DNA of 64,000 nt from Candidatus Parcubacteria bacterium (GCA_018664825.1 JABJNO010000006.1:15157-79156); one strand, 5' to 3'. Counted from the first letter of the stretch, positions 3,546 to 47,643 are shown. The notes: generated by a model not told the origin, from the letters alone. Made by a program: numbers and translations.

Positions 3546-3549
3546 ATTT

Positions 3550-4233
3550 TTATTCTTTTCTTTCTGCCACAACATAAATGATAAAAGCTCCTAAAATAAC
3601 AACGATAAATATTCCTAGCATAAAATAAAGCATTTTTGTATTTGAATCTTGCACCGGATCTTGCTGAAATACCAAAGGATCCTCTTCACCAGAATCATCT
3701 AGATGTATCACGTTGGGAGCAGACGGCATCATTTGTCTTTTGTCATTTTGTCTTTCGTTATTAGGATAAATTGGCTTACTTGGTGCATCTATCTGCTCTT
3801 CTCGAGTTTCAATAGTAAAATAAAGTTTTACAGCAGCTGAAATTTTTAGACCTCCTTGAGTAATAGGAGTAGCCTCAAGAAAAGCAAAATAATCACCCTC
3901 TTTTGCATCAGTTGGCAAATCTAGAAAAATATTTACTTCTCTTTTATCTCCTGCTTCAAGGAAAAAAATTTCAGGATCAAATTTTATCCATGACTCATCT
4001 GGTTGCAGCTCTTCTGCACTATCAGAAAAAGAAACGCTCATCTGAAAATCAACAGGATCGCTTCCTGTATTCAATACCTGTACTGCTTCCAGCTGGTATG
4101 TATCCCCTGCCTGGAGATTTTTGTCCAAATCAATTTTACCAGTACCAACTCCTACTCCTACTCCTAAACCAGCCAAAGATGCTATAGGGATAGCAATGGC
4201 CAATAAAGTTGTAATTAAAAATAATTTTTTCAT
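3550..4233 (-). CDS. Cell-surface protein with N-terminal signal peptide and C-terminal transmembrane anchor
   Basis: MKKLFLITTLLAIAIPIASLA signal peptide. Gly-Val repeat GLGVGVGVGTG. C-terminal hydrophobic helix MLYFMLGIFIVVILGAFIIYVV followed by ERKE. Confidence 0.45.
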   Translation of the reverse strand: MKKLFLITTLLAIAIPIASLAGLGVGVGVGTGKIDLDKNLQAGDTYQLEAVQVLNTGSDPVDFQMSVSFSDSAEELQPDESWIKFDPEIFFLEAGDKREVNIFLDLPTDAKEGDYFAFLEATPITQGGLKISAAVKLYFTIETREEQIDAPSKPIYPNNERQNDKRQMMPSAPNVIHLDDSGEEDPLVFQQDPVQDSNTKMLYFMLGIFIVVILGAFIIYVVAERKE

Positions 4234-10276: not shown

Positions 10277-11785
10277 CTATTTTTTATCTTGAACTATCTT
10301 TTCTAAAGCTTTTTTAAATAAGCCCTCCCATTTTTCCATCGGCTGACTTATAATCATAGGCTTCAACATTTTACGTAATTCATCACTGTGTTCGCCAGCT
10401 TCTTGGTCAATTTTTCTAAAAAATTCCAAACCATCTTCTGTGCTTTGTGAACAATTTTCTTCAAAATGATCCAGAGCCTCTTCAGCCTTTGCTAAACTCC
10501 TGCCAATTGCATCCTCATCTTTTTTACCACGAGGAGTTCCTTTTGTCTCAATACGAAGTTGTCTAAAACTAAGAGTAAGTCTTCTATGCTCAGGATTCTC
10601 CACGCCAAGTTCCTCTAATAAATCATTTGGATAATATTTTAATAACATTTTTTCAAAAGTCAAACGAATATTTCCTACGGCAGCTTTTAACTTTGTTACA
10701 TAAATTGGAATTATATCATTAATATCTTCATTGGATGTTCCTGAAAAATAATAAGCTAATAACTCTTCTTTAACAGTTGCCTCTATAGATGTTTTTTGAA
10801 AATAAGCTACTATTTCTTCTAGCTTGGCCGCAATTTCTTCTAATGATTTTTCAAACGCTTGTTTTAACTTTTCTCTTTGCTCAGCTTTTAGATGTTGGGC
10901 AAATATTTCTTGTATCTCGTCTGGCAAAAGTACCCCCTTACTTTCTTTTGCCTTGGTTATTTCTTGTTGAACTTCTAGAGTTTCTATTTCTAATGTTTGA
11001 ATCATTATCTCCAAGCCATCCACGGACTCCGAAATAACTTTTTGCGGCCCCTCCATTTGTCTACGAGGCCTTAAATACAAACTATTTTCAGCGTGTTGCT
11101 TTTCATGCTCAACTATTTTATCAATATCAGATTCTGTATCCCCTTCTTCAAAGCCGCTTTTGTTTATCAAAATAACCATTTCGCTCACAGAACCAACTTC
11201 TTCTAGATCTAAATCAGGATCGGCAAAAAAAGCACCCAAGGGCAAACCCATGTCACTTGATGAAGGTAATTCTTCGAGAGACATTTCGGATTCTTCAAAA
11301 TCTGCATAAACATCGCCCTCTTTGTGGATGCCCTGAGCTACATCAAGATGATGGTCACACATAAATATTAGACTGTCTTTATCTGGGATTAATGTAATAT
11401 CTCCAAATGTGCCAGAAGAAGAAAATATTTCTTTAAACATAGCTTCTTCATATTCTTCTTCACCAAAACGCTCTTTGTAAACATCAATAGCTCTGGCAAT
11501 TGTTTCACGTTTATTAAAAAGAGTCTCAATCCCTTTTAAAAAATATTCGTGTTGTCTTTTTGTAAATTCATGATTTTCCAAAACAGCTATAACCTCTTGA
11601 CGACTAGCTTCGGGGTTTTCTTGCATAAAATTTTGTACATCACGTACAGCCTCACTAAAATCTGCCAATTGTTCAAAAACCTGCTCTTCTAGTGGAAGAT
11701 TATCTTTGTCTTTTATTTTTTGTTCTGATTCTGCCGTGTCTTCCGTTTCAGAGACCTGATTTCCTTGTTCTAATAATTTTTTCAT
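10277..11785 (-). CDS. Acidic, coiled-coil-rich hypothetical protein
   Basis: 502-aa ORF rich in Glu/Lys. No recognisable catalytic motif. Confidence 0.45.
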   Translation of the reverse strand: MKKLLEQGNQVSETEDTAESEQKIKDKDNLPLEEQVFEQLADFSEAVRDVQNFMQENPEASRQEVIAVLENHEFTKRQHEYFLKGIETLFNKRETIARAIDVYKERFGEEEYEEAMFKEIFSSSGTFGDITLIPDKDSLIFMCDHHLDVAQGIHKEGDVYADFEESEMSLEELPSSSDMGLPLGAFFADPDLDLEEVGSVSEMVILINKSGFEEGDTESDIDKIVEHEKQHAENSLYLRPRRQMEGPQKVISESVDGLEIMIQTLEIETLEVQQEITKAKESKGVLLPDEIQEIFAQHLKAEQREKLKQAFEKSLEEIAAKLEEIVAYFQKTSIEATVKEELLAYYFSGTSNEDINDIIPIYVTKLKAAVGNIRLTFEKMLLKYYPNDLLEELGVENPEHRRLTLSFRQLRIETKGTPRGKKDEDAIGRSLAKAEEALDHFEENCSQSTEDGLEFFRKIDQEAGEHSDELRKMLKPMIISQPMEKWEGLFKKALEKIVQDKK

Positions 11786-11802
11786 GAAAATTGTATTATT
11801 AA

Positions 11803-11870
11803 TATAATTTGATTATATCAAAAAACCCCGCCAGAAGCGAGGTCAGAACTTTTTGTTATGAAAACCCTGT
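11803..11870 (-). terminator. Terminator-promoter cassette copy 3 (CCTCGCTTCTGGCGGGG + T6 + TGATATAAT)
   Basis: Minus strand: ...cataacaaaaagttctgacctcgcttctggcggggttttttgatataatcaaattat. Confidence 0.55.
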
Positions 11871-11872
11871 TT

Positions 11873-12046
11873 TTAATTTTTCTTACTTGCTATAAATGCT
11901 TCTACCATTAAACCTAGACCTAAACCAATCATAATAGGGCCAATGAAAAATAAAGGACTAAGATGCAAAAATAAAAAACCTACCCCGACACCCATAAGAA
12001 CACCTCCGCCAATAGCTAAACCACCTTGATTTTTTTTGTCTGACAT
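11873..12046 (-). CDS. Small glycine-zipper membrane protein
   Basis: MSDKKNQGGLAIGGGVLMGVGVGFLFLHLSPLFFIGPIMIGLGLGLMVEAFIASKKN. The start is taken at an internal Met; the track start is 12094. Confidence 0.35.
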   Translation of the reverse strand: MSDKKNQGGLAIGGGVLMGVGVGFLFLHLSPLFFIGPIMIGLGLGLMVEAFIASKKN

Positions 12047-12122
12047 AATTTTAAAATTAAAAATAAACAACATCTTCATTATACCACAAAACAAAAAACG
12101 AGCTAAGGTTAGCTCACTTTTT

Positions 12123-12231
12123 GACCCCTCGACTCGTTACACTCGCTCAGGACAAGTTGGGTCTCTATCGTAGACCCTGAGCGATTAAAAGGAGTCGAAT
12201 GGGTCGTAGACCCTGAGCGAAGCCGAAGGGT
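12123..12231 (+). repeat. Cluster of three copies of the TGAGCG...TCGAA hairpin repeat: one inverted (12123-12156) and two direct (12173-12205 and 12210-12231)
   Basis: Inverted copy gacccctcgactcgttacactcgctcaggac. Direct copies gaccc-TGAGCGATTAAAAGGAGTCGAAT-gggtc and accc-TGAGCGAAGCCGAA-gggt. A GC-rich patch in an AT-rich spacer. Confidence 0.55.
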
Positions 12232-12266
12232 GGGGTCCTTACGGACCTTAGTTATAACTTAATTAT

Positions 12267-13802
12267 TTATGGACAAAATGTATCACTTACTTGGAAACTA
12301 GTTTCTTTTGGTTGATAATCACTATTTACGCACCAGTACTTATCTTCGGCCAATTTAACAGAGGCAGCCCAAGCCTCAAATTCAGAAACACAAGAAAAAT
12401 TTATTACCCCTAAATCACTCTCTATGATATTAACTTCTGAACTCACACAAAAATCTAAATAAGTTAAATTATCATCATAATAGATTGTACTCAAATTTAA
12501 TAACTCACTAATCTTTGATTTTCTAGAAGCTTGTTCTTCACTAGATACTCCCCAATCATTTAATTCACCCGTGGTCAAAACACCCTCTCCTAAAGGATTA
12601 TAACCATTCTCTACCTCAGCACCATCTAAATAACCATCTCCGTCGGTATCTGGATTATTTGGATCGGTACCATGCATCGCCTCTAAAACATCATTCAAGC
12701 CATCTCCGTCGGTATCAATATTGTCTAAATCAGCATCAAAGAATACATTATCATTATTTATTAAAACAGTATCTTCGTCAATATCACTATCAATATTTTC
12801 TATGCACTCATAACTTATCACATCCATATAATAACCAAGGTAATTTTTGTCTGCATCATATTTTGGTTTTAAGCCATATAAATTACCTTCTGCACTTGCA
12901 TATTGTGGACAAAATATTTTTTCATTAGTATAAAGCACTATCTGACCATATTCAGTGTTTAAATAATGTTCTATTGGATTATCATTTATTCTCATATTAT
13001 GAGAATAATTATATTCCGGATACAAAACTTTTTCTTCAGTTAAGACGCCTTGTAATATAACAATCCCCTGACTAGCTTTACTAATCTGATTGTCAAGGCC
13101 AGTAGCCGCTGGCTCAAAAAACTTAAAAGTATCCACTATACTATGATTTTTTATTCTCTGTCTTTCTATATCTTCATTTTTATCTAATAGAAATAAAATA
13201 CTAACCACATGATCATTTTTTATAAACATAAAATGCTCTTTCATGCCACGATATAATACTCTATCCTCTGGATAATCCATAATAAAATTATAAACATACA
13301 TATCGTTTATTATTATAACCTTCCCTTCAACAAATTCTTCTGATAATTCAAACTGTTGCACTAGTAACTCATAACTTTCTGGGTCTGAAAAATCAACAAT
13401 AATGTCAGAACCTCCCATGGTCATAAAAAATGACTTATCGTCTTCAGACTTCCAACCATCATGATCGCCAATTTTAATAATCTTTAAATCCTCAGGGAAA
13501 GACATATTAAAGGCCCAATAAGTATCTTCTATTTCATGCCATCCTAATTTATCTATTTTATCTTTTTCCTCATTTAAAACTATTTCATTTTTTTGATCTA
13601 CTTCTTCTGCTTCTATGACTACTGTTTTATTAGCTTGTAACCACCAAAAAATCCCTCCCCCAACTAACACTAAAAATATAACAACCACCCCAATTATCAA
13701 TGGCCAATTATTTTTCTTTTGCACTACCCCCTCTTGAGGTACAGGTTTATACTCTTGTTGAATTTGAGGTTCTTGTTCAAGATTTTGATTTTGCTCTTCC
13801 AT
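12267..13802 (-). CDS. Membrane-anchored surface protein with a TSP3-like Ca-binding module
   Basis: N-terminal TM helix. Motif DTDGDGLNDVLEAMHGTDPNNPDTDGDGYLDGAEVENGYNPLGEG, shared with the genes at 18869 and 45985. N-terminus paralogous to the gene at 6862. Confidence 0.5.
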   Translation of the reverse strand: MEEQNQNLEQEPQIQQEYKPVPQEGVVQKKNNWPLIIGVVVIFLVLVGGGIFWWLQANKTVVIEAEEVDQKNEIVLNEEKDKIDKLGWHEIEDTYWAFNMSFPEDLKIIKIGDHDGWKSEDDKSFFMTMGGSDIIVDFSDPESYELLVQQFELSEEFVEGKVIIINDMYVYNFIMDYPEDRVLYRGMKEHFMFIKNDHVVSILFLLDKNEDIERQRIKNHSIVDTFKFFEPAATGLDNQISKASQGIVILQGVLTEEKVLYPEYNYSHNMRINDNPIEHYLNTEYGQIVLYTNEKIFCPQYASAEGNLYGLKPKYDADKNYLGYYMDVISYECIENIDSDIDEDTVLINNDNVFFDADLDNIDTDGDGLNDVLEAMHGTDPNNPDTDGDGYLDGAEVENGYNPLGEGVLTTGELNDWGVSSEEQASRKSKISELLNLSTIYYDDNLTYLDFCVSSEVNIIESDLGVINFSCVSEFEAWAASVKLAEDKYWCVNSDYQPKETSFQVSDTFCP

Positions 13803-18868: not shown

Positions 18869-21800
18869 TTAAGCTTCTATTTCTTCTCTCTTTCTTTGAT
18901 GCAAAAATATAATAACTATCAACGCAATGATAATGAGTACCGCTGCTCCTATAATATAATAAACTACCATGTTGTTTACATTGTTTGGGACAGTGGCATT
19001 ATCAAAATAATCATCAGCTGTCACCGCTTGGGCAGATTTGACCAAAAAAGAAGTTGGGTTTGATTGTTTTACTATCTTGCCAGTGTCATCATTGACCGTC
19101 ACATAGACCCGATGATGTCCATCAGCCAAAGAATGTTGTATGTCATACGTCCAGTTACCACTAGCGTCTGTCTTGGTGGTCATCACTAAAGGCAAATCAC
19201 TATACAAGAAAAGTGTCACCCAAGTATTTGGTGTTGCTTTACCTCCAAACTTTACATTTTTATCTTGGCTATTGATGTTATTAACATCAAAATTTTTATC
19301 AATCTTTTTTGATTTTACTCTCGGCTGTTCAATCATCTCACCAGCTGCAATAGCCTGCTCCAAATCATTTCTCGTGATTTCTAGCCTGCCTGGCCCCAAA
19401 GGATCATAGCCATTTTTTATTTCCTGACCATCTAGATAGCCATCTCCATCGGTGTCTGGATTGTTTGGATCGGTATCATAATATACTTCCAAGTCATCAC
19501 TCAAGCCATCCTCATCAGTATCAACCATCAAAATAGCCTGATTTACGATAGTCAATCTATCAGTATCTTCCAAAACTGTCTCTGATTTTGATTGAGCAAT
19601 GTATACATTTGTTTCTGCTTCTTCGAGTGGAGTCAGTGGAATAATTTCTTCATCTATACCTCCTTCATTCAAAGTAGCGTTGAGCTCGCCGACTGTCATC
19701 ACCTGTCCTATCAAAGGACTCAAAATATTATTGATATTAGTGGTTTGTCTTTGCCCAATAACCAAACGATTTAAGTATTCATCTCTCAATATATCATTAC
19801 AAATACTGATATCATCAAGCTGACAATCTACTGCGCTTCCATATTCTTCCAAGAGATAGTCTTTGCACTGATTGATATCTACAATACCCTTGTCCTGACA
19901 CTCCGTGTCCACATGAACTCTATTGAGATAGTCTTCACAAGAAATAGCATCATATATACCCTGTTCAATACACTCGTCAGCCAACGAGTCTATAGTCGCT
20001 CGAAATAAACGACAATTTTCTTCATCGCTAATGCCAGCTTCTATACAACTGGTATAAATAGTTACCGCCACACTAGCCCCTGAATCAGAAATTTCCTCTT
20101 CTTGCTCTGGAATATCCTCGGGCTCTACATCCTCATCTTCTACTTCATCCTCTACCTCGTCTTCTACCTCAGAAACAACAACATTTCCCTGCTCAATAGA
20201 AAAATAAATACGCTCTGTTTGTAAGGTTCCGTTTATCAATTCGATATAAAAATAATAATCTCCATCCTCTATCAACTGATTACCGTCTTCATCTTCAGAA
20301 TAAAATGTATATAACAACTTGTTGCTGATATTTGGATTATCTTCTTCATCTATGCTCCATGGCTCCAAAGATTCCCAATCTATCGTATAATTATTCCCCG
20401 TTTTATCAGAAACCTCTTCACCATCAACATAAAATAAATGCTGAACTGAAGCAAATGAATTTAATGATGTTAAAAATGGAAAACCGAGAGTAGCCCTTCC
20501 TTCTCTTCCTTCAAAAATACGCGGAGCGTGCAAATCAAAAATAACATCTTCCGGCACTTCCTGATTCTGACCTTCATTAACTATCTCTATATTTTCCAAA
20601 ATATTACTAGTCACCCATGGAATATACATATTACCCTCTGCCGAATGTTGGAGCCAAGCATCATAGATACCAGAAGTCAGGCCACCTAAACCATCCAAAT
20701 GGGCAGGATCTTTTGCATAAGCATAATCTGCGTCTGGAAAATTATCTCTATTTATTCCGTAGCCTTCAAGCTGACTCCAATCAGCTAAATCAGCTGAAAA
20801 ATAATATTTACTTTCATCAGCTTGATTTTCAAATACAAAATAAACCATCTGATTGTTCAGATCTACATTGGAACTCCCCATCAAAGTCACATCACCCTCC
20901 ATAAAAGATTCAGTATTGTGAAAATTGAGAACCACGTCATCCGGTGGCGGTGGTGGCAAATCCGGATCTTCTGTTTCTGCCACAATCAAGTTGTAGCCAT
21001 AGGTCGGCAGTCCTCCGCCTTCAAGCTCATATATAGTTCCGTCTTCTTTGGTGATTTCAAAAATCAAGTCATAGTTTCCTGATGGAAAAATATCGTCCCA
21101 AAAGTCGAGTATTATTCCACCTCCCCAAATATAACTATCTGGCTGTACCTGCGCAAGAACACCACCTCCGGCAATAGCGGCATCATCTTGATAAACAAAC
21201 TCGATCCCAACATCTGTAGCTATAAAATCTAATTCGATCTCAATATCAATTGGTATTATACCGTTGGAAATCAAATCACTACCTGGCACAGGAGCGATTA
21301 TGACGACCTCTTCTACTTCTGGTTGTTCTGTCAAATTACTCACTGCATATGACTCCAAAACAAACAGTGGTTCGTCTAGAGAAATTCCATTGATCTCCTC
21401 ATAAATTTTTACACTGTACGTACTATTTTGGTACAATGGTGTCCCATCAGCTCGGGCAACTGTAGTATCCCAATAACCAGAATACATCAATACACCATCA
21501 GCATCTGAAGAAAAAAGATCAACAGACCCTACATAATAATCAAAGACGTTAAAAATTTTGGCTGTTAGCTTAATGTTATCCCCCAATGGTCTGTTTATTT
21601 CAAATGCCAAAAGTACTTCTCCTGACAAGTCGGTCTCAGTAGGAGAAATAACACTTACTATTTCCAAAGGTACTATTTCTGGAATATCGACAGCAGGAGG
21701 AACTATAGAAAATCTTACATAATTACTAATCGCACCGGTGGGTCCTTCTTCGCCACTACTGCCATCAAGATCAGCTTGCATTATTATCTGATATTCACCA

Positions 21801-22573
21801 TCCGCCAAGCTCGATATATCATAATCGCGTACTCCCCATGTACCATAGACTAGGTCAAGTTGTTGACCATGAATATCTTCTACCAATGCTGGCACAACAA
21901 TAATTCCATTGTTATCAACTTCATGAATATCAAAAAAAATGTTGTTCAAATATTCAGTACCTTCAAATTCAAATATTATATCCATTGTATCATCAGTAAT
22001 CTCCATATCCGTCAATGGATTAAGAAACGTTGTATCACCCCCAATATCATACTGCTGTGGGTCTTGATTTCTAGATGCCAACAAGACAAAACTTTCCAAA
22101 GGTGACTCTATCTCATCAGACAAAAGACCATTGTTGTCAAATATCTGAGCAGTTACTTTCAAATAATAGTCTCCAGCTGGAAAATCAGCGGTATCCCAAC
22201 TAGAAATAGCTTTCCAACTACCATCACTCTGCAGTTCAGCTGGAAACTCTAGGTTTGTTATAGTCCCCAAAAGAGTAAAGTGTGCATGTGTAAAACCCTG
22301 ATTAGGTCCAATGTTGGCCTGAATATTTAGAACCGTGCCCCCTGGTATATCTACGCCCTGAACAGGATCGATATAAGTAGCCGACAGTTGTGGCAATTGT
22401 GGAGGGTCAATAATCTGAGCTCGTGTAGCCACAAAGACCAAGCCATACATTAGAGACAAAGCGATAACAAAAGTTATCATCAAATGATGTTGTACTCTTT
22501 CTAAAATCATAAAAAAAAATTTGTATTTAACTGAGTTTATTATACCACAAATCAATACAAATAAAAAAATCAC
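18869..22573 (-). CDS. Giant (1234 aa) cell-surface protein with signal/TM N-terminus, acidic tandem repeats, TSP3-like Ca-binding module and C-terminal TM anchor
   Basis: VEDEVEDEVEDEDVEPEDIPEQEEE repeats. Cys-rich segment CIEAGISDEENC...CIEQGIYDAISCEDY...CQDKGIVDINQCKDY. DTDEDGLSDDLEVYYDTDPNNPDTDGDGYLDGQEIKNGYDPLGPG motif. C-terminal helix VVYYIIGAAVLIIIALIVIIF then LHQRKREE. Confidence 0.55.
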   Translation of the reverse strand: MIFLFVLICGIINSVKYKFFFMILERVQHHLMITFVIALSLMYGLVFVATRAQIIDPPQLPQLSATYIDPVQGVDIPGGTVLNIQANIGPNQGFTHAHFTLLGTITNLEFPAELQSDGSWKAISSWDTADFPAGDYYLKVTAQIFDNNGLLSDEIESPLESFVLLASRNQDPQQYDIGGDTTFLNPLTDMEITDDTMDIIFEFEGTEYLNNIFFDIHEVDNNGIIVVPALVEDIHGQQLDLVYGTWGVRDYDISSLADGEYQIIMQADLDGSSGEEGPTGAISNYVRFSIVPPAVDIPEIVPLEIVSVISPTETDLSGEVLLAFEINRPLGDNIKLTAKIFNVFDYYVGSVDLFSSDADGVLMYSGYWDTTVARADGTPLYQNSTYSVKIYEEINGISLDEPLFVLESYAVSNLTEQPEVEEVVIIAPVPGSDLISNGIIPIDIEIELDFIATDVGIEFVYQDDAAIAGGGVLAQVQPDSYIWGGGIILDFWDDIFPSGNYDLIFEITKEDGTIYELEGGGLPTYGYNLIVAETEDPDLPPPPPDDVVLNFHNTESFMEGDVTLMGSSNVDLNNQMVYFVFENQADESKYYFSADLADWSQLEGYGINRDNFPDADYAYAKDPAHLDGLGGLTSGIYDAWLQHSAEGNMYIPWVTSNILENIEIVNEGQNQEVPEDVIFDLHAPRIFEGREGRATLGFPFLTSLNSFASVQHLFYVDGEEVSDKTGNNYTIDWESLEPWSIDEEDNPNISNKLLYTFYSEDEDGNQLIEDGDYYFYIELINGTLQTERIYFSIEQGNVVVSEVEDEVEDEVEDEDVEPEDIPEQEEEISDSGASVAVTIYTSCIEAGISDEENCRLFRATIDSLADECIEQGIYDAISCEDYLNRVHVDTECQDKGIVDINQCKDYLLEEYGSAVDCQLDDISICNDILRDEYLNRLVIGQRQTTNINNILSPLIGQVMTVGELNATLNEGGIDEEIIPLTPLEEAETNVYIAQSKSETVLEDTDRLTIVNQAILMVDTDEDGLSDDLEVYYDTDPNNPDTDGDGYLDGQEIKNGYDPLGPGRLEITRNDLEQAIAAGEMIEQPRVKSKKIDKNFDVNNINSQDKNVKFGGKATPNTWVTLFLYSDLPLVMTTKTDASGNWTYDIQHSLADGHHRVYVTVNDDTGKIVKQSNPTSFLVKSAQAVTADDYFDNATVPNNVNNMVVYYIIGAAVLIIIALIVIIFLHQRKREEIEA

Positions 22574-29162: not shown

Positions 29163-29777
29163 ATGAATAAATTTGAAACACCTTCATTGCCTTATGACTA
29201 TAATGCTCTGGAGCCACATATAGATGAAGCAACTATGAAAATTCACCACGATAAACATCACGTTGCTTATACAACAAATTTTAACAAAGCCCTAGAGAGT
29301 GTCGCCAACCTAGATGGTAAATCAGCTGAAGATATTTTGAAAAATTTGGACTCTATACCAGAAGACGCTCGCAATGCAATCAAAAATCATGGCGGTGGAC
29401 ATGTCCATCACAGCTTTTTTTGGGAAATCATGCGACCAGGGCAAAACAACAATGCCCCTGAGGGTGAACTACTTGAAGCTATAAACAAAACATTTGGTAG
29501 CTTTGAAAAATTCCGTGAAGAATTTAGTCAATCTGCAATGACTGTCTTTGGCTCCGGCTGGGCCTGGCTAGTTGTAGATGGTGGAGACCTAAAAATCACT
29601 CAAACTTCAAAACAAGATAGCCCCTATTCACTAGGTCATATCCCTGTCTTGGGTATTGACGTTTGGGAGCATTCATATTATCTTAAATACGAAAATAAAA
29701 GAGCTGATTTTGTCGATGCCTTTTGGAATATAATCAACTGGACGAAGGTTGCTGAAAACTACTCAGCTAGTAAATAA
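29163..29777 (+). CDS. sodA: Fe/Mn superoxide dismutase
   Basis: HHDKHHVAYTTNFNKALE. Metal-ligand motif DVWEHSYYLKYENKRADFV. Length 204 aa. Confidence 0.9.
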   Translation: MNKFETPSLPYDYNALEPHIDEATMKIHHDKHHVAYTTNFNKALESVANLDGKSAEDILKNLDSIPEDARNAIKNHGGGHVHHSFFWEIMRPGQNNNAPEGELLEAINKTFGSFEKFREEFSQSAMTVFGSGWAWLVVDGGDLKITQTSKQDSPYSLGHIPVLGIDVWEHSYYLKYENKRADFVDAFWNIINWTKVAENYSASK

Positions 29778-30700: not shown

Positions 30701-31312
30701 ATGGAAAAAGAACATGACTGCTGTGGCGGTGGAAACTGTGATAGCTACGAACTAAAAATAGGTAGCCCTGCTCCAAGTTTTGAAGCAGAAATCTATCATG
30801 AAGATGATACAAAAAAGATAAAGCTATCTGACTACAAAGGAAAATGGGTGATTCTATTTTTCTATCCAGCTGATTTTACTTTTGTCTGTCCAACTGAGCT
30901 AAGTGATATAGCTGATAGATATGAGGAAGTCAAAAAGCTCAACGGAGAGATATTGTCAGTCAGTACTGATACTGTCTTTAGCCACAAAGCTTGGCACAAT
31001 GAATCAGATACTATCAAAAAAATAAAATTCCCAATGGTAGCAGACCCAACTCACGAAATATCATACAAGTACAATGTTTTGATTGAAGATGAGGGCCTAG
31101 CTCTCAGGGGAACATTTATCATCGATCCTGAAGGCAATCTCAAAACTATGGAAGTACATGACAATGGTATTGGCCGAAGTGGTGACGAACTCATCCGCAA
31201 GCTGCAGGCCGCTCAATTTGTCCATAAGTATGGCGACCAAGTCTGCCCTGCCAATTGGCAACCAGGCAAAGACACGCTGAAACCCGGACTAGACCTAGTA
31301 GGAAAACTTTAA
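30701..31312 (+). CDS. ahpC: Typical 2-Cys peroxiredoxin (AhpC/Prx1) with a Cys-rich N-terminal extension
   Basis: FFYPADFTFVCPTEL peroxidatic Cys. Resolving Cys in QVCPANW. Extra N-terminus MEKEHDCCGGGNCDSYE. Confidence 0.85.
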   Translation: MEKEHDCCGGGNCDSYELKIGSPAPSFEAEIYHEDDTKKIKLSDYKGKWVILFFYPADFTFVCPTELSDIADRYEEVKKLNGEILSVSTDTVFSHKAWHNESDTIKKIKFPMVADPTHEISYKYNVLIEDEGLALRGTFIIDPEGNLKTMEVHDNGIGRSGDELIRKLQAAQFVHKYGDQVCPANWQPGKDTLKPGLDLVGKL

Positions 31313-31320
31313 ATCAATTT

Positions 31321-31352
31321 AAAAAGACCTCCCTTTGGAGGTCTTTTTTATT
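31321..31352 (+). terminator. Bidirectional intrinsic terminator between ahpC and the paralog array
   Basis: aaaaagacctccctttggaggtctttttta. A 9-bp stem flanked by A and T runs. Confidence 0.7.
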
Positions 31353-31944
31353 ATTCATATAATATTTTGTCTTTCAAGCCTCCTAGTCTTTTTATTCTAA
31401 AAGCTTCTTCCACCAAAGATGCATCTACATAAATATGACCATGCACAACCAAATCATCGGGCAACTCTTTTATCTTTGTTTTTTTCATATACAACACCCC
31501 TCCTACTTCCAGGCCTTTTGGCAGTTTTGTAATACCGTCATTGTCCAAGTATAGATCTCCTGTTGTAGTCAGATTGTCTGGTATTCTCGAATCAATATCT
31601 TCTGTATCTTTTAAATTTAAAAATCCCTGGACAGCTATTATTTTTATTTCTTCTCCATTTTTTATTCTAGTTTCAACTTTTACTTTTTCTCTAGGCTCAA
31701 CTTCTTCACCAATCTCCTTTGATTGAGCTATGACAGCCTCAACTGTAAACTTGTAGCCATTGATAACTCCTACTTCTTTTTTTAAAAAATCTAAACTTGG
31801 CTCCAACTGATGTTTTTTTAGTGACCTCAACAATCTAAAATCACAATCTTTTGAATCTGCCAAAAAATTGTTATCAAAATTTTGCTTACTTTCTTTGAGC
31901 TGAACAATTTCTCTTCTCAGGTTTTCACAATCTATTGCTTGCAT
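31351..31944 (-). CDS. LRR-like repeat protein, member 1 of a five-gene tandem paralog array (cytoplasmic, no signal peptide)
   Basis: C-terminal triple about-21-aa repeat IPDNLTTTGDLYL / ITKLPKGLEVGGVLYM / IKELPDDLVVHGHIYV. N-terminus MQAIDCENLR. DNA segments are shared with its neighbours. Confidence 0.55.
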   Translation of the reverse strand: MQAIDCENLRREIVQLKESKQNFDNNFLADSKDCDFRLLRSLKKHQLEPSLDFLKKEVGVINGYKFTVEAVIAQSKEIGEEVEPREKVKVETRIKNGEEIKIIAVQGFLNLKDTEDIDSRIPDNLTTTGDLYLDNDGITKLPKGLEVGGVLYMKKTKIKELPDDLVVHGHIYVDASLVEEAFRIKRLGGLKDKILYE

Positions 31945-31953
31945 AATTTTATC

Positions 31954-32529
31954 TTAATCTTCAAGGCCTACGTGTACTGAACCATATATGCCATTTATTC
32001 TAGTCACCTCATCCGTCAAAATGGGATCAATATAAATATCTCCATGTACTATCAAATCATCTGGTAGTTTTTTTATCTTGGTACGGTTGATATGCAGATT
32101 ACCTCCCACTACCAGTCCTCTTGGTAATTTTGTAATCTTTGTACCCTTAAAATTTAAATATTCTTTCACTTCTAAATTGTTGGGTATTTTTGAGTCTATA
32201 TCATTCATCATATCTAAGACTAATCCAATTTTTATGACAGTAATCTTTATACTAGCACCATCTCTATTTCTATACTTAAAATCTAATGACTTTTCTATAT
32301 CTCCTGGATTAAGCCTCATATCAATGGCCTCAATTGCAAACCTATACCCTTTAATAGCTTCCACTTCTGACCTCAAAGATTCTAAACGTTTTTCTAGGCT
32401 AGTTTTCCATAATCTGAGATCAACAAAATCCCACTTCTCTGAAGTGCCTCTACACCTTTCATCAAAACCATCTTTGTCCTCTTTGGTACGATGTATAAAT
32501 TTCCTCGTTTTTTCACAATCTATTGGCAT
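31954..32529 (-). CDS. LRR-like repeat protein, array member 2
   Basis: MPIDCEKTRK ... KEDKDGFD ... WDFVDLRLW ... KGYRF; C-terminus ITKLPRGLVVGGNLHINRTKIKKLPDDLIVHGDIYID. Confidence 0.55.
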   Translation of the reverse strand: MPIDCEKTRKFIHRTKEDKDGFDERCRGTSEKWDFVDLRLWKTSLEKRLESLRSEVEAIKGYRFAIEAIDMRLNPGDIEKSLDFKYRNRDGASIKITVIKIGLVLDMMNDIDSKIPNNLEVKEYLNFKGTKITKLPRGLVVGGNLHINRTKIKKLPDDLIVHGDIYIDPILTDEVTRINGIYGSVHVGLED

Positions 32530-32537
32530 GTTTTTAT

Positions 32538-33128
32538 TTATCCCATTAAATGTATATCTCCTCGTAAATTTCCTGCTTTACGTAATCGAACTACCTCGTC
32601 TCTCAAACTTTCGTCAAGATAAATATCTCCGTGAACCATCAAATCGTCTGGTAATTTTTTTATTTTGCTGTTATTGATATGCAGATTACCTCCCACTACC
32701 AAGCCTTTTGGTAATTCCGTAATATCTGAACCTTGTAAAAATATATTTTCCATCACAGTCATGTTTTCCGGTATTTTTCCATCCAAATTTTCTACTCTCT
32801 TTAAATTCAAAATATCTTTTACTACTATTGTTCTAATCTTTTCTCCACCCCTTAGCCCGCCCTCTACAAGTACTTTTTTTCTTGCTCCCTCAAAATCCTT
32901 GGGCTCACCTACACTAGCCATGACTACACTCACTATAAATTTATAACCTTTAACAAATTTTAACTCTCCCCTTAAAAAATCCAAACGCTGGCCCAGGGCA
33001 ATCCTCCATTGCCTCAAAGCAACGAAATCCCAATCGGCCACTTCACCAATACAAGATTTATCAAACCATCTTTTATCTTCCTTGGCGTGCTCTATGGTTA
33101 TTCTTATTTTTTCACAATCTATTATCAT
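32538..33128 (-). CDS. LRR-like repeat protein, array member 3
   Basis: MIIDCEKIRI ... KEDKRWFD ... WDFVALRQW ... KGYKF; C-terminus ITELPKGLVVGGNLHINNSKIKKLPDDLMVHGDIYLD. Identical 29-nt DNA stretch shared with member 2 (attgatatgcagattacctcccactacca). Confidence 0.55.
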   Translation of the reverse strand: MIIDCEKIRITIEHAKEDKRWFDKSCIGEVADWDFVALRQWRIALGQRLDFLRGELKFVKGYKFIVSVVMASVGEPKDFEGARKKVLVEGGLRGGEKIRTIVVKDILNLKRVENLDGKIPENMTVMENIFLQGSDITELPKGLVVGGNLHINNSKIKKLPDDLMVHGDIYLDESLRDEVVRLRKAGNLRGDIHLMG

Positions 33129-33130
33129 AT

Positions 33131-33721
33131 TTATGCTGCTACAAAGAGACTACGTATATTACCCTTTTTCTTTAGCTTGGTTATTTTATCTCCCAATAAA
33201 GGTAGTTGTTTTTGATTAATAACCAACTCTCCCTCAACTACAAGATCATCTGGAATATCCGTAATAAGAGTACCCCTAATATCCATATTACCACTTACTA
33301 GTAGATCACGAGGTATTTCTCTTACATTAAGATCTTTGATAAAAAAATTTCCATCTATTGTCCAGTCACCCGGAATCCTTACTGTCTTTTCACCAAATAT
33401 ATCTTTTCCGTTTTCTGTAAAATCCAAACCTCCTTTGTAGAGCATTCTTCCGTGTCTTTTAAATTCCATGAACTCTACCATAGATAAGAGATCTTCTCTA
33501 TCAGAACTTCTGATAAATTCCATCATATCAACCCCAATTACTTCTCCTTTGAGTTTTTCCAATGCTTCACTTATATTTATTTTTTTTTCTCTCAACTTGC
33601 CAAGATCCAAAGAATCATCGATAGCATCAAATTGATCCACAAAACCAGCAAAGGCTGGCTTTGTTACCTTTAGTAAATATCTCCATTGTTCACATTCTAC
33701 TTTGTTTTTATTTTTAAACAT
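33131..33721 (-). CDS. LRR-like repeat protein, array member 4 (divergent N-terminus)
   Basis: C-terminus IPGDWTIDGNFFIKDLNVREIPRDLLVSGNMDIRGTLITDIPDDLVVEGELVIN retains the repeat. Confidence 0.5.
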   Translation of the reverse strand: MFKNKNKVECEQWRYLLKVTKPAFAGFVDQFDAIDDSLDLGKLREKKINISEALEKLKGEVIGVDMMEFIRSSDREDLLSMVEFMEFKRHGRMLYKGGLDFTENGKDIFGEKTVRIPGDWTIDGNFFIKDLNVREIPRDLLVSGNMDIRGTLITDIPDDLVVEGELVINQKQLPLLGDKITKLKKKGNIRSLFVAA

Positions 33722-33725
33722 ACTT

Positions 33726-34319
33726 TTAATACAACATGCTTAATTTGCCACCTATCTGACCTTTGTCTTTTAATCTTTGCATCAGCTCTCTACGAGGATC
33801 ATTGGGATCAGAAAAAGTCAGATAACAATCTCCCTTGATGATAATATCTTCTGGAATATAATATCTATCGTCTTTATCAAATGAAAAATTACCATTCACT
33901 ACTAAACCTTTTGGTAAAAAACTAATATCTGTATTATTAATATTAAAATCCCCCTCAACAACCAAATTCTTTGGTAAAAATTTGATTGGCCTTCTAGATA
34001 AATCCAAATCTTCTTGATATATTATCTTTCTTTTTTCAAAACTAATTCCAAATCGTGGTAAAAAATATTTTCTATCATCTTCCGAACCTACCATGGCTAC
34101 CAATCTCCGTATTTGCTTTTGAGCAGGAACCATAAAAAGGGTTTCTTCAATATTTTTTTTCAACAAGCCAAAAGAATAGGTAGTATTTCCAATAGTAGCA
34201 AAATTTCTTGTTTTTATTGCATCTGGATATTGATCAGCAAAGTCAACTACAAAGCCCTTCATAGCTCCTAGGTCTCTCCTCAGTTCTTCACAATATTTTT
34301 TTGGTGTTTCTTGGCTCAT
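33726..34319 (-). CDS. LRR-like repeat protein, array member 5 (divergent N-terminus), first gene of the array
   Basis: C-terminus IKFLPKNLVVEGDFNINNTDISFLPKGLVVNGNFSFDKDDRYYIPEDIIIKGDCYL. Confidence 0.5.
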   Translation of the reverse strand: MSQETPKKYCEELRRDLGAMKGFVVDFADQYPDAIKTRNFATIGNTTYSFGLLKKNIEETLFMVPAQKQIRRLVAMVGSEDDRKYFLPRFGISFEKRKIIYQEDLDLSRRPIKFLPKNLVVEGDFNINNTDISFLPKGLVVNGNFSFDKDDRYYIPEDIIIKGDCYLTFSDPNDPRRELMQRLKDKGQIGGKLSMLY

Positions 34320-34415
34320 ATTCTTAAATTAGCAATAATTTCTATATTAATCAAATCTACTTAATTTTAGCATAAAATTTTAAAAAATGTTATAATCTTT
34401 ATATAAAAACAGCTT

Positions 34416-41356: not shown

Positions 41357-41974
41357 ATGGAAATTTTAAACAACCCCTGGATAATAACTATTGGAAGTGG
41401 CATAATTGTCGCTATATTTTCTTTTTTTATCCTAAGAAAAAAATCTGAGCCTATGCCTGCTAAAAAATTAACACAGGCAGGAAAACACAATCAATCTATT
41501 AATATTGATATAAAAGATGGGGACAACAAAATAAGTATCAACGAACGAGATAAAAATAGGAAAAAACATGACAACCAAATGGATATAGATAATCTAAAAA
41601 AAATAACAAACATACTATTTGTTGATGATGATCCCAATTACATGATTGTCAAAATATTAAAAAAGCAAGGCTGGATAAATACAAAAATTGTTACTGATAT
41701 CATTGATCCGGATAAATTTAATGACGTACATGTATTTTTTGTTGATATAAATGGGGTCGGTAAAAAAATGCACCTCAAAGATGAAGGCATGGGTTTAGCC
41801 TTGCTCTTAAAAGATAAGTTTGTAGATAAAAAGGTTATTTTATACTCTTCTGACACAAATAGAGATATGGCCCATCCAGTCTTCAAAAAAATAGATGGAA
41901 TTTTACCTGCAGATGCTCAAATTTATCAATTTACAAATATACTTGAACAATTTGCAAAAGAGATAAAAATTTAA
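41357..41974 (+). CDS. Membrane-anchored protein with a degenerate receiver (REC)-like domain
   Basis: N-terminal TM helix. NILFVDDDPNYMIVKILKKQGW ... VHVFFVDINGVG ... KVILYSSD follows the beta-alpha pattern of CheY-like domains (acidic pocket DDD, candidate phospho-Asp in FFVD). GC about 25%. Confidence 0.35.
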   Translation: MEILNNPWIITIGSGIIVAIFSFFILRKKSEPMPAKKLTQAGKHNQSINIDIKDGDNKISINERDKNRKKHDNQMDIDNLKKITNILFVDDDPNYMIVKILKKQGWINTKIVTDIIDPDKFNDVHVFFVDINGVGKKMHLKDEGMGLALLLKDKFVDKKVILYSSDTNRDMAHPVFKKIDGILPADAQIYQFTNILEQFAKEIKI

Positions 41975-41976
41975 AA

Positions 41977-42996
41977 ATGTTTTACTATCATCTACTCGAC
42001 AATAACAATGAACTAGTTTTATCTAATCTTCCTCCAGAATTAAAAAAATACTTTACAAAATGTAAAGATAAGAATAAGCTATCACGTTTTAATGGGCAAA
42101 AATGCAGAGAGGGTAAATTAGCTGATGGTACTATTGGAACTGCATATATACTCACAACAGATACTAATGAGGTTAATAGTTCAAAAATCTTCCAAGACAA
42201 ACTAGCATTATATTTAAAATTTATTCAAGAAATAATAAATATAAAAAATGATACTGTAAACAAAATATTACATGAAATAACCAAAATTAACGGCCATTGT
42301 TTACTGGAATTATTTGATATAATACCAAATGATATAAGTAAAACTAAAACTTATAAAAAACAAATTTTAAAAGTAGAAAAACAAATTATAGCCAAAACCA
42401 AGGATACAGCAAAAAGCTTATTTAGCCTACACAGAAAAATATTACACATAAAGACCACTTGCTCTAATTTAAAACTTTTATTTAGCAAAAAAATAACCGT
42501 AGATAAAGAAAGGCACGATATAGCAAACGCAATTAAACCTAGTTTACATGTTTATATTCCACACTTACAAGAAAAAGGTGTACACATAAATGTAAAAGAA
42601 AAAAATACAAAGAATATAAACATGAATTTTGAGTACTTCGAAGCTGCCATGGTACCTCTTTTAGATAATACACTTAAATATATCTTGCATGACTCTACTC
42701 TTCATATTTATTTTAAAAACTCCGAAGAGGGTTTCATAATAAACTTTGATATGATAAGCATGGCCATAACAAAAGAGGAAGAAGAAGATATTATGAAATA
42801 TGGGTTTTCTGGAATAAACGCAAAAAAGAATCAAAAAAATGGTAAAGGCATTGGAATGACTACTATAAAAGATTCATTAAAGGTTAATAATGCTAAAATA
42901 AAGTTTGAAAATAATGTTAATGGAAGAAGAGAAAAAAGATATAAAAACACCACCTATGAAAGGAATATATTTAAAATAATTTTTCTGGATCAGTAA
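41977..42996 (+). CDS. Soluble histidine-kinase-like ATPase (HATPase_c N-box and G2-box present)
   Basis: N-box MVPLLDNTLKYILH. G2-box GKGIGMTTIKD. Candidate H-box HEITKINGH. Starts 3 nt after the preceding stop. Extremely AT-rich. Confidence 0.4.
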   Translation: MFYYHLLDNNNELVLSNLPPELKKYFTKCKDKNKLSRFNGQKCREGKLADGTIGTAYILTTDTNEVNSSKIFQDKLALYLKFIQEIINIKNDTVNKILHEITKINGHCLLELFDIIPNDISKTKTYKKQILKVEKQIIAKTKDTAKSLFSLHRKILHIKTTCSNLKLLFSKKITVDKERHDIANAIKPSLHVYIPHLQEKGVHINVKEKNTKNINMNFEYFEAAMVPLLDNTLKYILHDSTLHIYFKNSEEGFIINFDMISMAITKEEEEDIMKYGFSGINAKKNQKNGKGIGMTTIKDSLKVNNAKIKFENNVNGRREKRYKNTTYERNIFKIIFLDQ

Positions 42997-45984: not shown

Positions 45985-47643
45985 ATGCCAAAACAAAAAA
46001 TAAAATTCTTGTTTTTGATAATTACTGGGTATTTTTTTATTTTTGCCAAGCCAGCCAAGGCTGTCATACCGCCTGATTTTATATTTAGCATTACTGCCCA
46101 AATAGTCCAATTTTTTTCAATCATAATGATATTTTTGGCTACTATTTTAGGAACTTTGGTTCAATTTTTTAAAACGAAATACTACACTATCAGACACAAA
46201 AAAACTATCCTGACCTTGATAATAATCGGTATTGTCTTGGTCTCTTTTGTTTCTTCCTACTTTTATGCTACCCACAAACAAGAAGTCGAATATCAAAAAT
46301 GGCTAAACGAAAGTGAAAAATACAATATAGTAGAAATGGAGAACGAAGACATGGACTCTGATGGTGATGGACTGACAGATCTAGAAGAAGTCACCTACGG
46401 CACAAATCCTCACAACGCAGACACTGACGGAGACTCCTACTCAGACGGAGAAGAAGTCGCCAATGGCTATGATCCCCTGGGAAGTGGCAAGACCAAAGAA
46501 AATATAGAAAAAGGAGATGCAAACGATCAGCTAGCAATCGGTGCTCAAGCAAATGAAAATATCGATACTTCCGACAATACATTTGTATCCAATGTAGAGA
46601 TCACTGATGCTTCTACTAGTTTTATAAATGAGTATTATAGCAACATGGCCAACAGCAAACTAACCGAGGCCTATGAAATGTCAAAAAAATCTGTCAGCTA
46701 CTCAACATTTGAAAGCTGGTATCTAGAAACTACCAAAATTACTATTGATAAACTCATCAGAATAGACGAAACAAAATCATCCATAGAGCTCACTTTGTTT
46801 GAAGGAGAAAAATTTACTAGATATGGTGTCTTGATGGCTTTGGAGTTGAGAAATGAAATCCCACAAAGAGTAGCTAGCTCCAATGTAAAAATACTAGCCG
46901 AAGGAACTATCCAAAATCAAATTGTATCTATAGACGAACAAAAACTTTCTGATGAATATGCTTTTTTTGATGAACATAAAAACAAAAATCTCCTCTTCGG
47001 CAACCAAGAGCTACAAGACTTGATATCTAGTAGCGCCCAAGACTATATCATCTTGGATGCCAGAGAAGATATCGAATATGAAAATGGATATTTTCCTGCT
47101 AGTGAACATATACGCTTTGCAGATCTCAAGGCCGGACAATGGATAGAAATACCAGATGATAAATTTGTCTATGTCCTCTGCTGGTCAGGTATCCGTGGCA
47201 AAGAAGTAGCCGAATTTTTGAGAACCAAAAAAATAGTTGCCTCATACCTAGAAGAAGGAGCCAATGGCTGGGTAGAATTTGGTGGACACTGGATAGGTAG
47301 TATAAAATTTGGAGCACAATACAACGAATCAAGATATCAAATAGTATTTGATACTGATGATGTCAGACAAAAAGTACGAGATGGTGCCTTTTTGGTAGAT
47401 ACTAGAGAGCCCTACAAATTTAAACAAACCCACATAACAGGCAGTGTAAATATACCTATCATGTACACTCCTACTGTAAATATCGAAAATGTTTTTGCCC
47501 AAGTGCCAGCCAACAGCCAAATAATCACTGTCTGCGATGGTTATGTAAATTGTTTTGATGCAAAAATAACTGGCGTAGAACTAGAAAGACGTGGACATCA
47601 GTTTTTGGGAAGATACAATAAACCCTGGGAATATGAAAATTAA
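45985..47643 (+). CDS. Membrane-anchored protein with TSP3-like Ca-binding module and two C-terminal rhodanese domains
   Basis: Signal/TM N-terminus. DSDGDGLTDLEEVTYGTNPHNADTDGDSYSDGEEVANGYDPLGSG. Rhodanese 1 active-site loop LCWSGIRGKE. Rhodanese 2 ITVCDGYVNC. Confidence 0.55.
   Translation: MPKQKIKFLFLIITGYFFIFAKPAKAVIPPDFIFSITAQIVQFFSIIMIFLATILGTLVQFFKTKYYTIRHKKTILTLIIIGIVLVSFVSSYFYATHKQEVEYQKWLNESEKYNIVEMENEDMDSDGDGLTDLEEVTYGTNPHNADTDGDSYSDGEEVANGYDPLGSGKTKENIEKGDANDQLAIGAQANENIDTSDNTFVSNVEITDASTSFINEYYSNMANSKLTEAYEMSKKSVSYSTFESWYLETTKITIDKLIRIDETKSSIELTLFEGEKFTRYGVLMALELRNEIPQRVASSNVKILAEGTIQNQIVSIDEQKLSDEYAFFDEHKNKNLLFGNQELQDLISSSAQDYIILDAREDIEYENGYFPASEHIRFADLKAGQWIEIPDDKFVYVLCWSGIRGKEVAEFLRTKKIVASYLEEGANGWVEFGGHWIGSIKFGAQYNESRYQIVFDTDDVRQKVRDGAFLVDTREPYKFKQTHITGSVNIPIMYTPTVNIENVFAQVPANSQIITVCDGYVNCFDAKITGVELERRGHQFLGRYNKPWEYEN

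Follow-up and report, generated by a model that had tools for sequence, protein, structure and literature searches.

Several bacterial leucine-rich repeat (LRR) proteins have been described that can be compared with the genes reported here. The type III effectors YopM, IpaH, SspH and SlrP have in common with these genes a short bacterial LRR of 20-22 residues with an LP-containing variable segment. In the IpaH family the LRR is joined to an all-helical NEL domain with a functional Cys. FlrP (PDB 8z5u), an LRR protein of the periplasm, carries a Sec signal peptide (M1-A19), and five copies of it sit on the rod of the Vibrio polar flagellar motor as a structural spacer (bioRxiv 10.64898/2025.12.04.692373). 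The Imm-LRR proteins are small LRR proteins proposed to neutralise toxins. They are encoded in tandem immunity-gene arrays, and have been described beside toxins of the type V secretion system (T5SS) and in heterogeneous poly-immunity loci (Zhang et al. 2012, PMC3482391). Here we describe an array of five genes, m1 to m5, in a 64,000-nucleotide stretch of a Candidatus Parcubacteria bacterium genome (GCA_018664825.1, JABJNO010000006.1:15157-79156), referred to as the window.

The array is an orphan architecture built on a known, poorly modelled LRR class, and constitutes a mosaic multigene family in a bacterium of the candidate phyla radiation (CPR). It bears the evolutionary marks of a conflict or partner-recognition family, namely turnover of copies in a single slot, mosaicism, specificity regions that evolve fast on a conserved scaffold, and a conserved promoter region. 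The CPR bacteria, or Patescibacteria, account for much of bacterial diversity, subsist on other cells, and carry lineage-specific genes most of which have no assigned role. A literature search on LRR proteins in CPR returned nothing specific. The marks listed above make the array proteins, which are about 195 amino acids (aa) long, soluble and confidently predicted, small and tractable candidates for how CPR bacteria handle phages, competitors or hosts. Identical proteins have been deposited as hypothetical proteins of metagenome-assembled genomes (MAGs) of Candidatus Parcubacteria bacterium (e.g. MBT4849391.1).

The five minus-strand open reading frames (ORFs) are co-oriented, encode 191-197 aa each and are separated by gaps of 2-9 nt, exactly as an earlier note on this DNA had placed them. 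They are full-length paralogs, with BLASTP similarity far beyond chance. The full-length BLASTP alignments among m1, m2 and m3 have 41-46% identity (E 1e-39 to 1e-56), with m2 and m3 46% identical (E 9e-56) and m1 41-43% identical to both. The m4 protein aligns with m2 and m3 along some 190 aa at 27-28% identity (E 1e-15 to 1e-17) and matches m5 at E 2e-7. Taken together, the paralogs show a pairwise identity of 20-48%, and the m1-m3 subgroup one of 41-48%. The N-terminal halves of m4 and m5, previously regarded as unrelated to the others, are weakly similar in register (BLASTP E 3e-4 to 0.01; profile-profile comparison with hhalign, E 0.0012 at a probability of only 19%). They share the invariant Cys, Glu and Lys found in helix 1 of all five proteins, and the Cys is invariant at residue 5-10 in 11 of 11 family members.

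The C-terminal motif [IL]P..L.V.G.L.I occurs as three units in all five proteins, so the triple repeat reported earlier is present throughout the array. Its period is exactly 20 residues, however, and not 21, and the repeat copies lie 60 and 120 nt apart in the DNA. The AlphaFold2 model of m3 (pLDDT 92.8, pTM 0.83) consists of three helices (residues 5-25, 35-73 and 76-85), a beta-hairpin (86-103), a short LRR solenoid with units beginning at residues 119, 139 and 159, and, at the C-terminus, a helix and a final strand. In the m5 model (pLDDT 87.1, pTM 0.73) these elements recur in the same order. The predicted architecture is thus an orphan three-helix N-domain with a Cys starting helix 1, a beta-hairpin, three 20-residue LRRs and a helix-strand cap. 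Tandem units of the 20-30 residue class, their hydrophobic pattern and the strand-turn solenoid place the proteins in the LRR superfamily, as the earlier note had proposed, and the fold and profile matches agree. The LRR models of Pfam and NCBIfam (LRR_1, LRR_4, LRR_8 etc.) do not match the five proteins at E up to 1; longer proteins of the same repeat class match LRR_4 or LRR_1 weakly. Scans of m1-m5 against Pfam, NCBIfam, PADLOC and PHROGs gave nothing usable. The N-termini are charged, and neither a signal peptide, as already noted, nor a membrane segment was detected in any of the five (highest Kyte-Doolittle 19-residue mean at most 1.22). The proteins are therefore predicted to be cytoplasmic and soluble.

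A profile of the family finds the FlrP sequence at E 1.4e-37, with other LRR proteins ranking after it. The array proteins share with FlrP the 20-residue repeat consensus and the fold, and belong to the FlrP class of repeats. Against the LRR domains of SlrP, IpaH9.8 and SspH1 the same profile scores between E 4e-7 and 3e-2 (SlrP 4e-7; IpaH9.8 6e-4). The N-domain is about 85 residues long and highly charged. A profile of this domain has no PDB match better than E 0.06, and in a search of 5.8 billion proteins recovers solely members of the present locus family. The full architecture is therefore an orphan, but the repeat belongs to a large known LRR class with a solved structure, and the statement that the family was not recognisable holds for the former and not for the latter.

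Although the repeat class is the same, the array proteins are not FlrP orthologues. FlrP is LRR almost throughout, whereas the array proteins have three clear repeats and give about half of their length to the helical N-domain and hairpin. FlrP is periplasmic and carries a Sec signal, whereas the array proteins have no signal peptide. The array is a variable multigene family, and flagellar genes were found neither in the 18 kb annotated round the array nor among the window ORFs scanned. The domain order of the IpaH-type proteins is reversed relative to the array, and the array helical domain, at about 85 residues, has no similarity to NEL. The YopM/IpaH-type consensus has Asn where the array repeat has Gly, and the array is not in a type III secretion system context: Pfam found no NEL domain in the proteins and the annotated surroundings hold no secretion genes. 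The resemblance to this group is confined to the short repeat.

The repeat belongs to a very large class. When 1.84 billion representative proteins were searched exhaustively with a profile, 4809 clusters (50% identity) were returned at E <=1e-3, nearly all of which match the LRR part only; many are long multi-repeat proteins. The full-length architecture was present in four of the 4809 matching clusters. Some class members are fused to PcfJ, Amidoligase_2, or ToxN and SpoVG. The models of Pfam, NCBIfam, PADLOC and PHROGs miss this class almost entirely, and FlrP, described in 2025, is its sole solved member.

Small members of the class were found in phage or integrative-element settings in the four contexts examined. 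These are a T4-like phage contig, a 260-kb contig of many small ORFs, a location beside an integrase and excisionase pair, and a further contig, possibly of phage origin, made up of small ORFs without annotation. Class members also occur on a 312-kb viral contig (jumbo phage), and a Foldseek search against viral models found LRR proteins of uncultured Caudovirales with up to 32% identity. Among cultured phages tblastn gave a single weak match, to a hypothetical protein of Edwardsiella phage Edno5. Species-representative genomes yielded one distant LRR locus only, in a Candidatus Allofournierella MAG, and not the species of the window, and a metagenome scan yielded nothing beyond the same clone, a single relative and distant loci with the LRR alone. 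The phage and mobile-element LRR proteins have the same repeat unit, with up to 47% identity over the LRR, and many are 130-240 aa long. They differ from the array proteins in having no N-domain with the CE motif and usually more repeats or other fused domains, and in lying in phage or integrative contexts, whereas the array occupies a syntenic core-genome slot.

Two further observations were made on members of the class. The 20-aa LRR occurs repeatedly in fusion with a C-terminal domain of about 150 aa (YKINDRDTSxYKNLSLDD, TGAC..GTR.F) that has no Pfam match (P0018, P0040 and L034 4752-6317); among these fusions is a 521-aa protein of the 312-kb viral contig. In the 260-kb contig (L028, Ga0334986_0000005) four consecutive ORFs of about 151 aa lie at 274-2166, with many small ORFs lacking Pfam matches around the LRR protein P0024, and this gene cluster resembles a jumbo-phage accessory-gene array.

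The family is restricted to a small clade, in which copies have been gained and lost in one fixed slot, always the interval between a CYTH gene and a peroxiredoxin gene, with 0, 1, at least 2, at least 3 or 5 copies. The slot holds no member and a DUF2207 gene instead in L032 and the P0201 contig, whose CYTH proteins are 83% and 75% identical to that of the window. It holds one member in L033 (CYTH 79%) and at least two in L009 (CYTH 87%). In L025 (CYTH 90%) the CYTH gene is followed by three members, and L008 has the end of an m5-like gene, one type-A gene and the peroxiredoxin gene. These last two are contigs of an unbinned foraminifer-associated metagenome (PMC6783311). A tree of 11 full-length members has two deep types. 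Type A comprises m1-m3, P0002 and P0075, with m4 as a divergent relative, and type B comprises m5, L025_193 and the P0191/P0192/L033_190 group. Genomes differ in the subtype of the gene that comes first after the promoter region, at 21-31% aa identity. One part of the L025 contig (PJEL010026745.1, about 3340-4202) looks chimeric, with an m5-like gene running into an APH/kinase-like C-terminus, followed by a glycerate-kinase-like gene of higher GC.

The fast divergence noted earlier was confirmed by comparison with the flanking genes. Ratios of nonsynonymous to synonymous divergence (dN/dS) were calculated by the Nei-Gojobori method; dS is near saturation and all omega values are rough. CYTH and peroxiredoxin are 86-90% identical in aa sequence to their counterparts in the relatives (dN 0.05-0.11, dN/dS 0.07-0.09), and the best array orthologue pairs 54-64% (dN 0.26-0.31, dN/dS 0.2-0.5). 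The divergence is unevenly distributed. Between m3 and P0002 identity is 85% in the LRR (omega 0.04), 51% in the N-domain (omega 0.47) and 32% in the tail, and LRR omega overall is 0.04-0.3. Between P0192 and L033_190 the N-domain is 80% identical and residues 86-108 only 23% (omega about 1.4, over just 22 codons). By these comparisons the N-terminal half with the hairpin, and also the C-terminal tail, diverge several-fold faster than the flanking genes, and the LRR core and promoter region are conserved. The 96-nt intergenic region between m5 and CYTH is 78-92% identical to its counterparts in three relatives, 62 of the 96 columns being invariant, at a flanking-gene synonymous divergence of 0.8 to more than 1. 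In two relatives, L025 (1608-1795) and L033 (2148-2384), palindromic insertions such as CCCAGCCCCACTTTTTCAAGAAAAAGTGGGGCTGGG lie between the two promoter blocks.

Different segments of a protein have different nearest paralogs. That of P0002 is m1 in columns 31-60 and m3, at 60-95%, in columns 61-150, and the P0002 tail is 67% identical to m2 versus 20-25% to others. The P0075 tail is 70-95% identical to the m3 tail. Maximum chi-square breakpoints were located at about column 146 (P0002, m3 versus m2) and about column 168 (m3, P0002 versus P0075), each with a permutation p <1e-4. Both fall inside the conserved LPKGLVVGGNLHIN...KIKKLPDDL core. The family thus evolves by gain and loss of copies together with exchange of segments between paralogs, for which the conserved LRR DNA probably served as the homology substrate.

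The same core is the site of the longest exact DNA match between m2 and m3, which the earlier note had given as 29 nt and as a sign of recent duplication or gene conversion. The match exists and is 28 nt long, in the codons for LVVGGNLHIN; codon-shuffled controls reached at most 13 nt. It is embedded in a 127-nt segment of 82.7% identity, and a run of this length in a segment of about 80% identity with identical residues is only marginally surprising, so that recent duplication or gene conversion from the match by itself is rejected and the mosaic tests carry the argument instead. Paralog dS is 1.4-1.8 (saturated) and both subtypes are present in related genomes. Recent duplication is therefore unsupported and the paralogs are, by this measure, old; what stands of the earlier claim is recombination between paralogs, as judged by the mosaic tests.

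The array is operon-like (Table 1), with its short gaps (4, 2, 8 and 9 nt in the order of transcription, m5 to m1), one conserved upstream region and one terminator hairpin at its ends. All five genes start with ATG and stop with TAA. Their GC of 0.32-0.36 and third-position GC (GC3) of 0.23-0.30 lie inside the range of the window. A Shine-Dalgarno (SD) motif precedes none of the five, as had been pointed out. It is found, however, in only 8% of 50 long ORFs of the window, so its lack is a property of the genome and not of the locus. Across the window the starts of long ORFs are preceded by A/T-rich stretches, e.g. TAAAAnn. A 199-aa ORF on the plus strand (32078-32677, TTG start), antisense to m2 and m3, is very probably no gene; it is a Leu/Ser/Phe-rich low-complexity by-product of the repeat codons.

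Table 1. Coordinates in the window of the array genes and of the features adjoining them.
Feature	Position	Strand	Description
m5	33726-34319	minus	197 aa, type B, first in array; N-terminal part 33978-34319, three 20-aa LRR units 33798-33977
m4	33131-33721	minus	196 aa, divergent, groups with type A (neighbour-joining tree); LRR units 33197-33376
m3	32538-33128	minus	196 aa, type A; N-terminal part (helical domain and hairpin) 32775-33128, LRR units 32595-32774
m2	31954-32529	minus	191 aa, type A; LRR units 32008-32187
m1	31351-31944	minus	197 aa, type A, last in array; LRR units 31405-31584
Two-block divergent intergenic region, m5/CYTH	34320-34415		conserved blocks, promoter-like
Promoter-like match	34367-34396	plus	TTAGCA, 18-nt spacer, TATAAT, with TG; consensus match only
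Promoter-like match	34393-34364	minus	consensus match only
Bidirectional terminator-like hairpin	31321-31348		between m1 and convergent peroxiredoxin gene; 12-bp stem with 5 GC pairs, T-runs flanking on both strands
Peroxiredoxin gene	30701-31312
SOD gene	29163-29777

On the peroxiredoxin side the array is flanked by genes for ferredoxin, cysteine desulfurase, NifU, superoxide dismutase (SOD), a patatin-like protein and peroxiredoxin, and on the opposite side by genes for CYTH, a beta-CASP metallo-beta-lactamase (MBL) hydrolase, a Gmad2 protein and RNR. Close relatives without the LRR family also lack the peroxiredoxin and SOD genes in the syntenic region. A prophage or genomic island is rejected because the flanks are syntenic core genes, the composition is that of the genome, and no integrase or tRNA gene adjoins the array; the earlier view of the five as native backbone genes agrees with this. 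A functional link to CYTH from conserved synteny is likewise rejected, since the compared genomes are such close relatives that their synteny is uninformative.

As to function, we tentatively favour a cytoplasmic repertoire of binding or neutralising proteins, that is, an orphan and homogeneous poly-immunity-like array. There are two precedents for such a function, the Imm-LRR poly-immunity loci (PMC3482391) and the small LRR proteins of the same class in phages and integrative elements. The array resembles the Imm-LRR loci, as these are described, in its tandem layout of small genes and its cytoplasmic location. The array proteins would act as stoichiometric protein binders, with the conserved LRR core as a scaffold and the variable N-domain, hairpin, first repeat and tail as specificity determinants. 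The paralogs would be expressed together as a repertoire whose members each recognise or neutralise their own variant of some foreign protein that evolves fast and enters the cytoplasm, for instance a toxin delivered by neighbours or by a host, or a phage protein. Several results weigh against this reading. The Imm-LRR loci include toxins and are heterogeneous, whereas the array has no toxin gene and is homogeneous. A toxin, nuclease or secretion partner, which the earlier note had suggested looking for, was found beside the array neither in the annotated surroundings nor in the relatives. Pfam, its Imm families included, has no match to m1-m5. PADLOC gave no match for the five proteins and the CYTH neighbour, no nucleoside triphosphatase (NTPase) or effector domain was found, and the array is not a known defence system. 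The same clone is present in at least nine independent assemblies with the locus 99.99-100% identical, so that the locus is invariant in the sampled population and there is no within-population hypervariability. Overall dN/dS is below 1, with a single 22-codon segment above it; with dS close to saturation, this does not demonstrate positive selection.

A doubtful alternative is that the proteins are endogenous adaptors or regulators of a native partner, perhaps in a CYTH/peroxiredoxin pathway and with a redox Cys, whose extra copies were subfunctionalised under relaxed constraint. The single-copy state in L033, in the same slot, would fit such a role, as would the invariant Cys, the strong conservation of the promoter region shared with CYTH and the overall constraint on the sequences. 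The family also co-occurs with the adjacent peroxiredoxin, and the family-less genomes have neither peroxiredoxin nor SOD at the site, but this association comes from 2-4 phylogenetically non-independent genomes. The gene is, moreover, absent from close relatives (CYTH 75-83% identical) and therefore dispensable, and the subtype of the first gene varies among genomes. Segment shuffling and a dN 3- to 8-fold above that of the flanks would be unusual for a housekeeping adaptor. If the proteins were ordinary adaptors, the array would be one more lineage-specific expansion of an LRR family. The dependence of CPR bacteria in general on a host raises another reading, which we consider unlikely, that of exported host-interaction effectors. 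These would pass into or onto the host cell of this presumably episymbiotic bacterium by a Sec-independent route and bind host proteins there through the LRR, in the manner of the YopM, IpaH and SspH effectors, with the Cys as a site of modification or anchoring. The scores of the repeat class against SlrP, IpaH9.8 and SspH1, the fast-evolving and multi-copy nature of the family, the lack of a Sec signal together with the N-terminal Cys, and the relatives from the foraminifer-associated metagenome are all consistent with this. However, the annotated 18 kb contains no secretion system or chaperone gene, the proteins have no enzymatic effector domain, the foraminifer link is one of co-assembly among unbinned contigs only, and many free metagenomes contain this clone as well.

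That the nearest LRR-only relatives are encoded by phages or mobile elements would suit an anti-phage sensor repertoire or domesticated phage genes, in which the LRR senses phage proteins and the N-domain or an unlinked partner responds. This appears improbable, because an NTPase or effector domain, a PADLOC match and nearby defence genes are all lacking, and because the charged N-domain has no detectable similarity to anything. A long shot is that the array is an unrecognised intracellular variable-recognition repertoire, in which segments are swapped via the LRR core and the Cys-bearing helical domain would be the output module, with no NTPase. If so, it would be a minimal bacterial counterpart of the LRR-based immune receptor families. 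The idea that the array consists of duplicates in decay and without function, or results from faulty assembly, is largely refuted and highly improbable. Two variants of m1, each in one assembly only and possibly an assembly error, could be taken for decay: a T6-to-T7 frameshift at about 31658-31664 (L001) and a 96-nt in-frame deletion at 31453-31544 (L010). The five ORFs are, however, intact and of near-equal length, the structure is the same in the independent assemblies, the folds are confident, the promoter region is conserved and dN/dS is below 1, down to the low values of the LRR. A phase-variable contingency locus, also raised earlier, is rejected as well. Tandem Repeats Finder (TRF) detected no relevant tandem repeat in the array, homopolymers are at most 9 nt long, no simple-sequence repeat is present, the assemblies are near-identical, and the T6-to-T7 change is confined to one of them.

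Elsewhere in the window several minor features were observed. Among the 50 long ORFs (at least 150 aa), the stop codon is TAA in 44, TAG in 6 and TGA in none, although TGA and TAA triplets are equally frequent out of frame. ORFs of 100 codons or more that do terminate in TGA are few and look spurious. These counts suggest that TGA is avoided or unused as a stop in this Parcubacteria genome. Positions 1-1500 have a GC of 0.50-0.57, versus about 0.35 elsewhere, and contain two ORFs (52-597 and 676-1473) without a Pfam match, one of them with an SD-like motif; this segment may be foreign DNA or a chimeric contig end. Two adjacent ORFs of 205 and 339 aa at 41357-42996 have a GC of 0.26-0.29 and no Pfam match. 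Large proteins with bacterial TSP3 repeats or Big_13, one of them also with rhodanese, are encoded at 10277-13802, 18869-22573 and 45985-47643 and are probably located at the cell surface.

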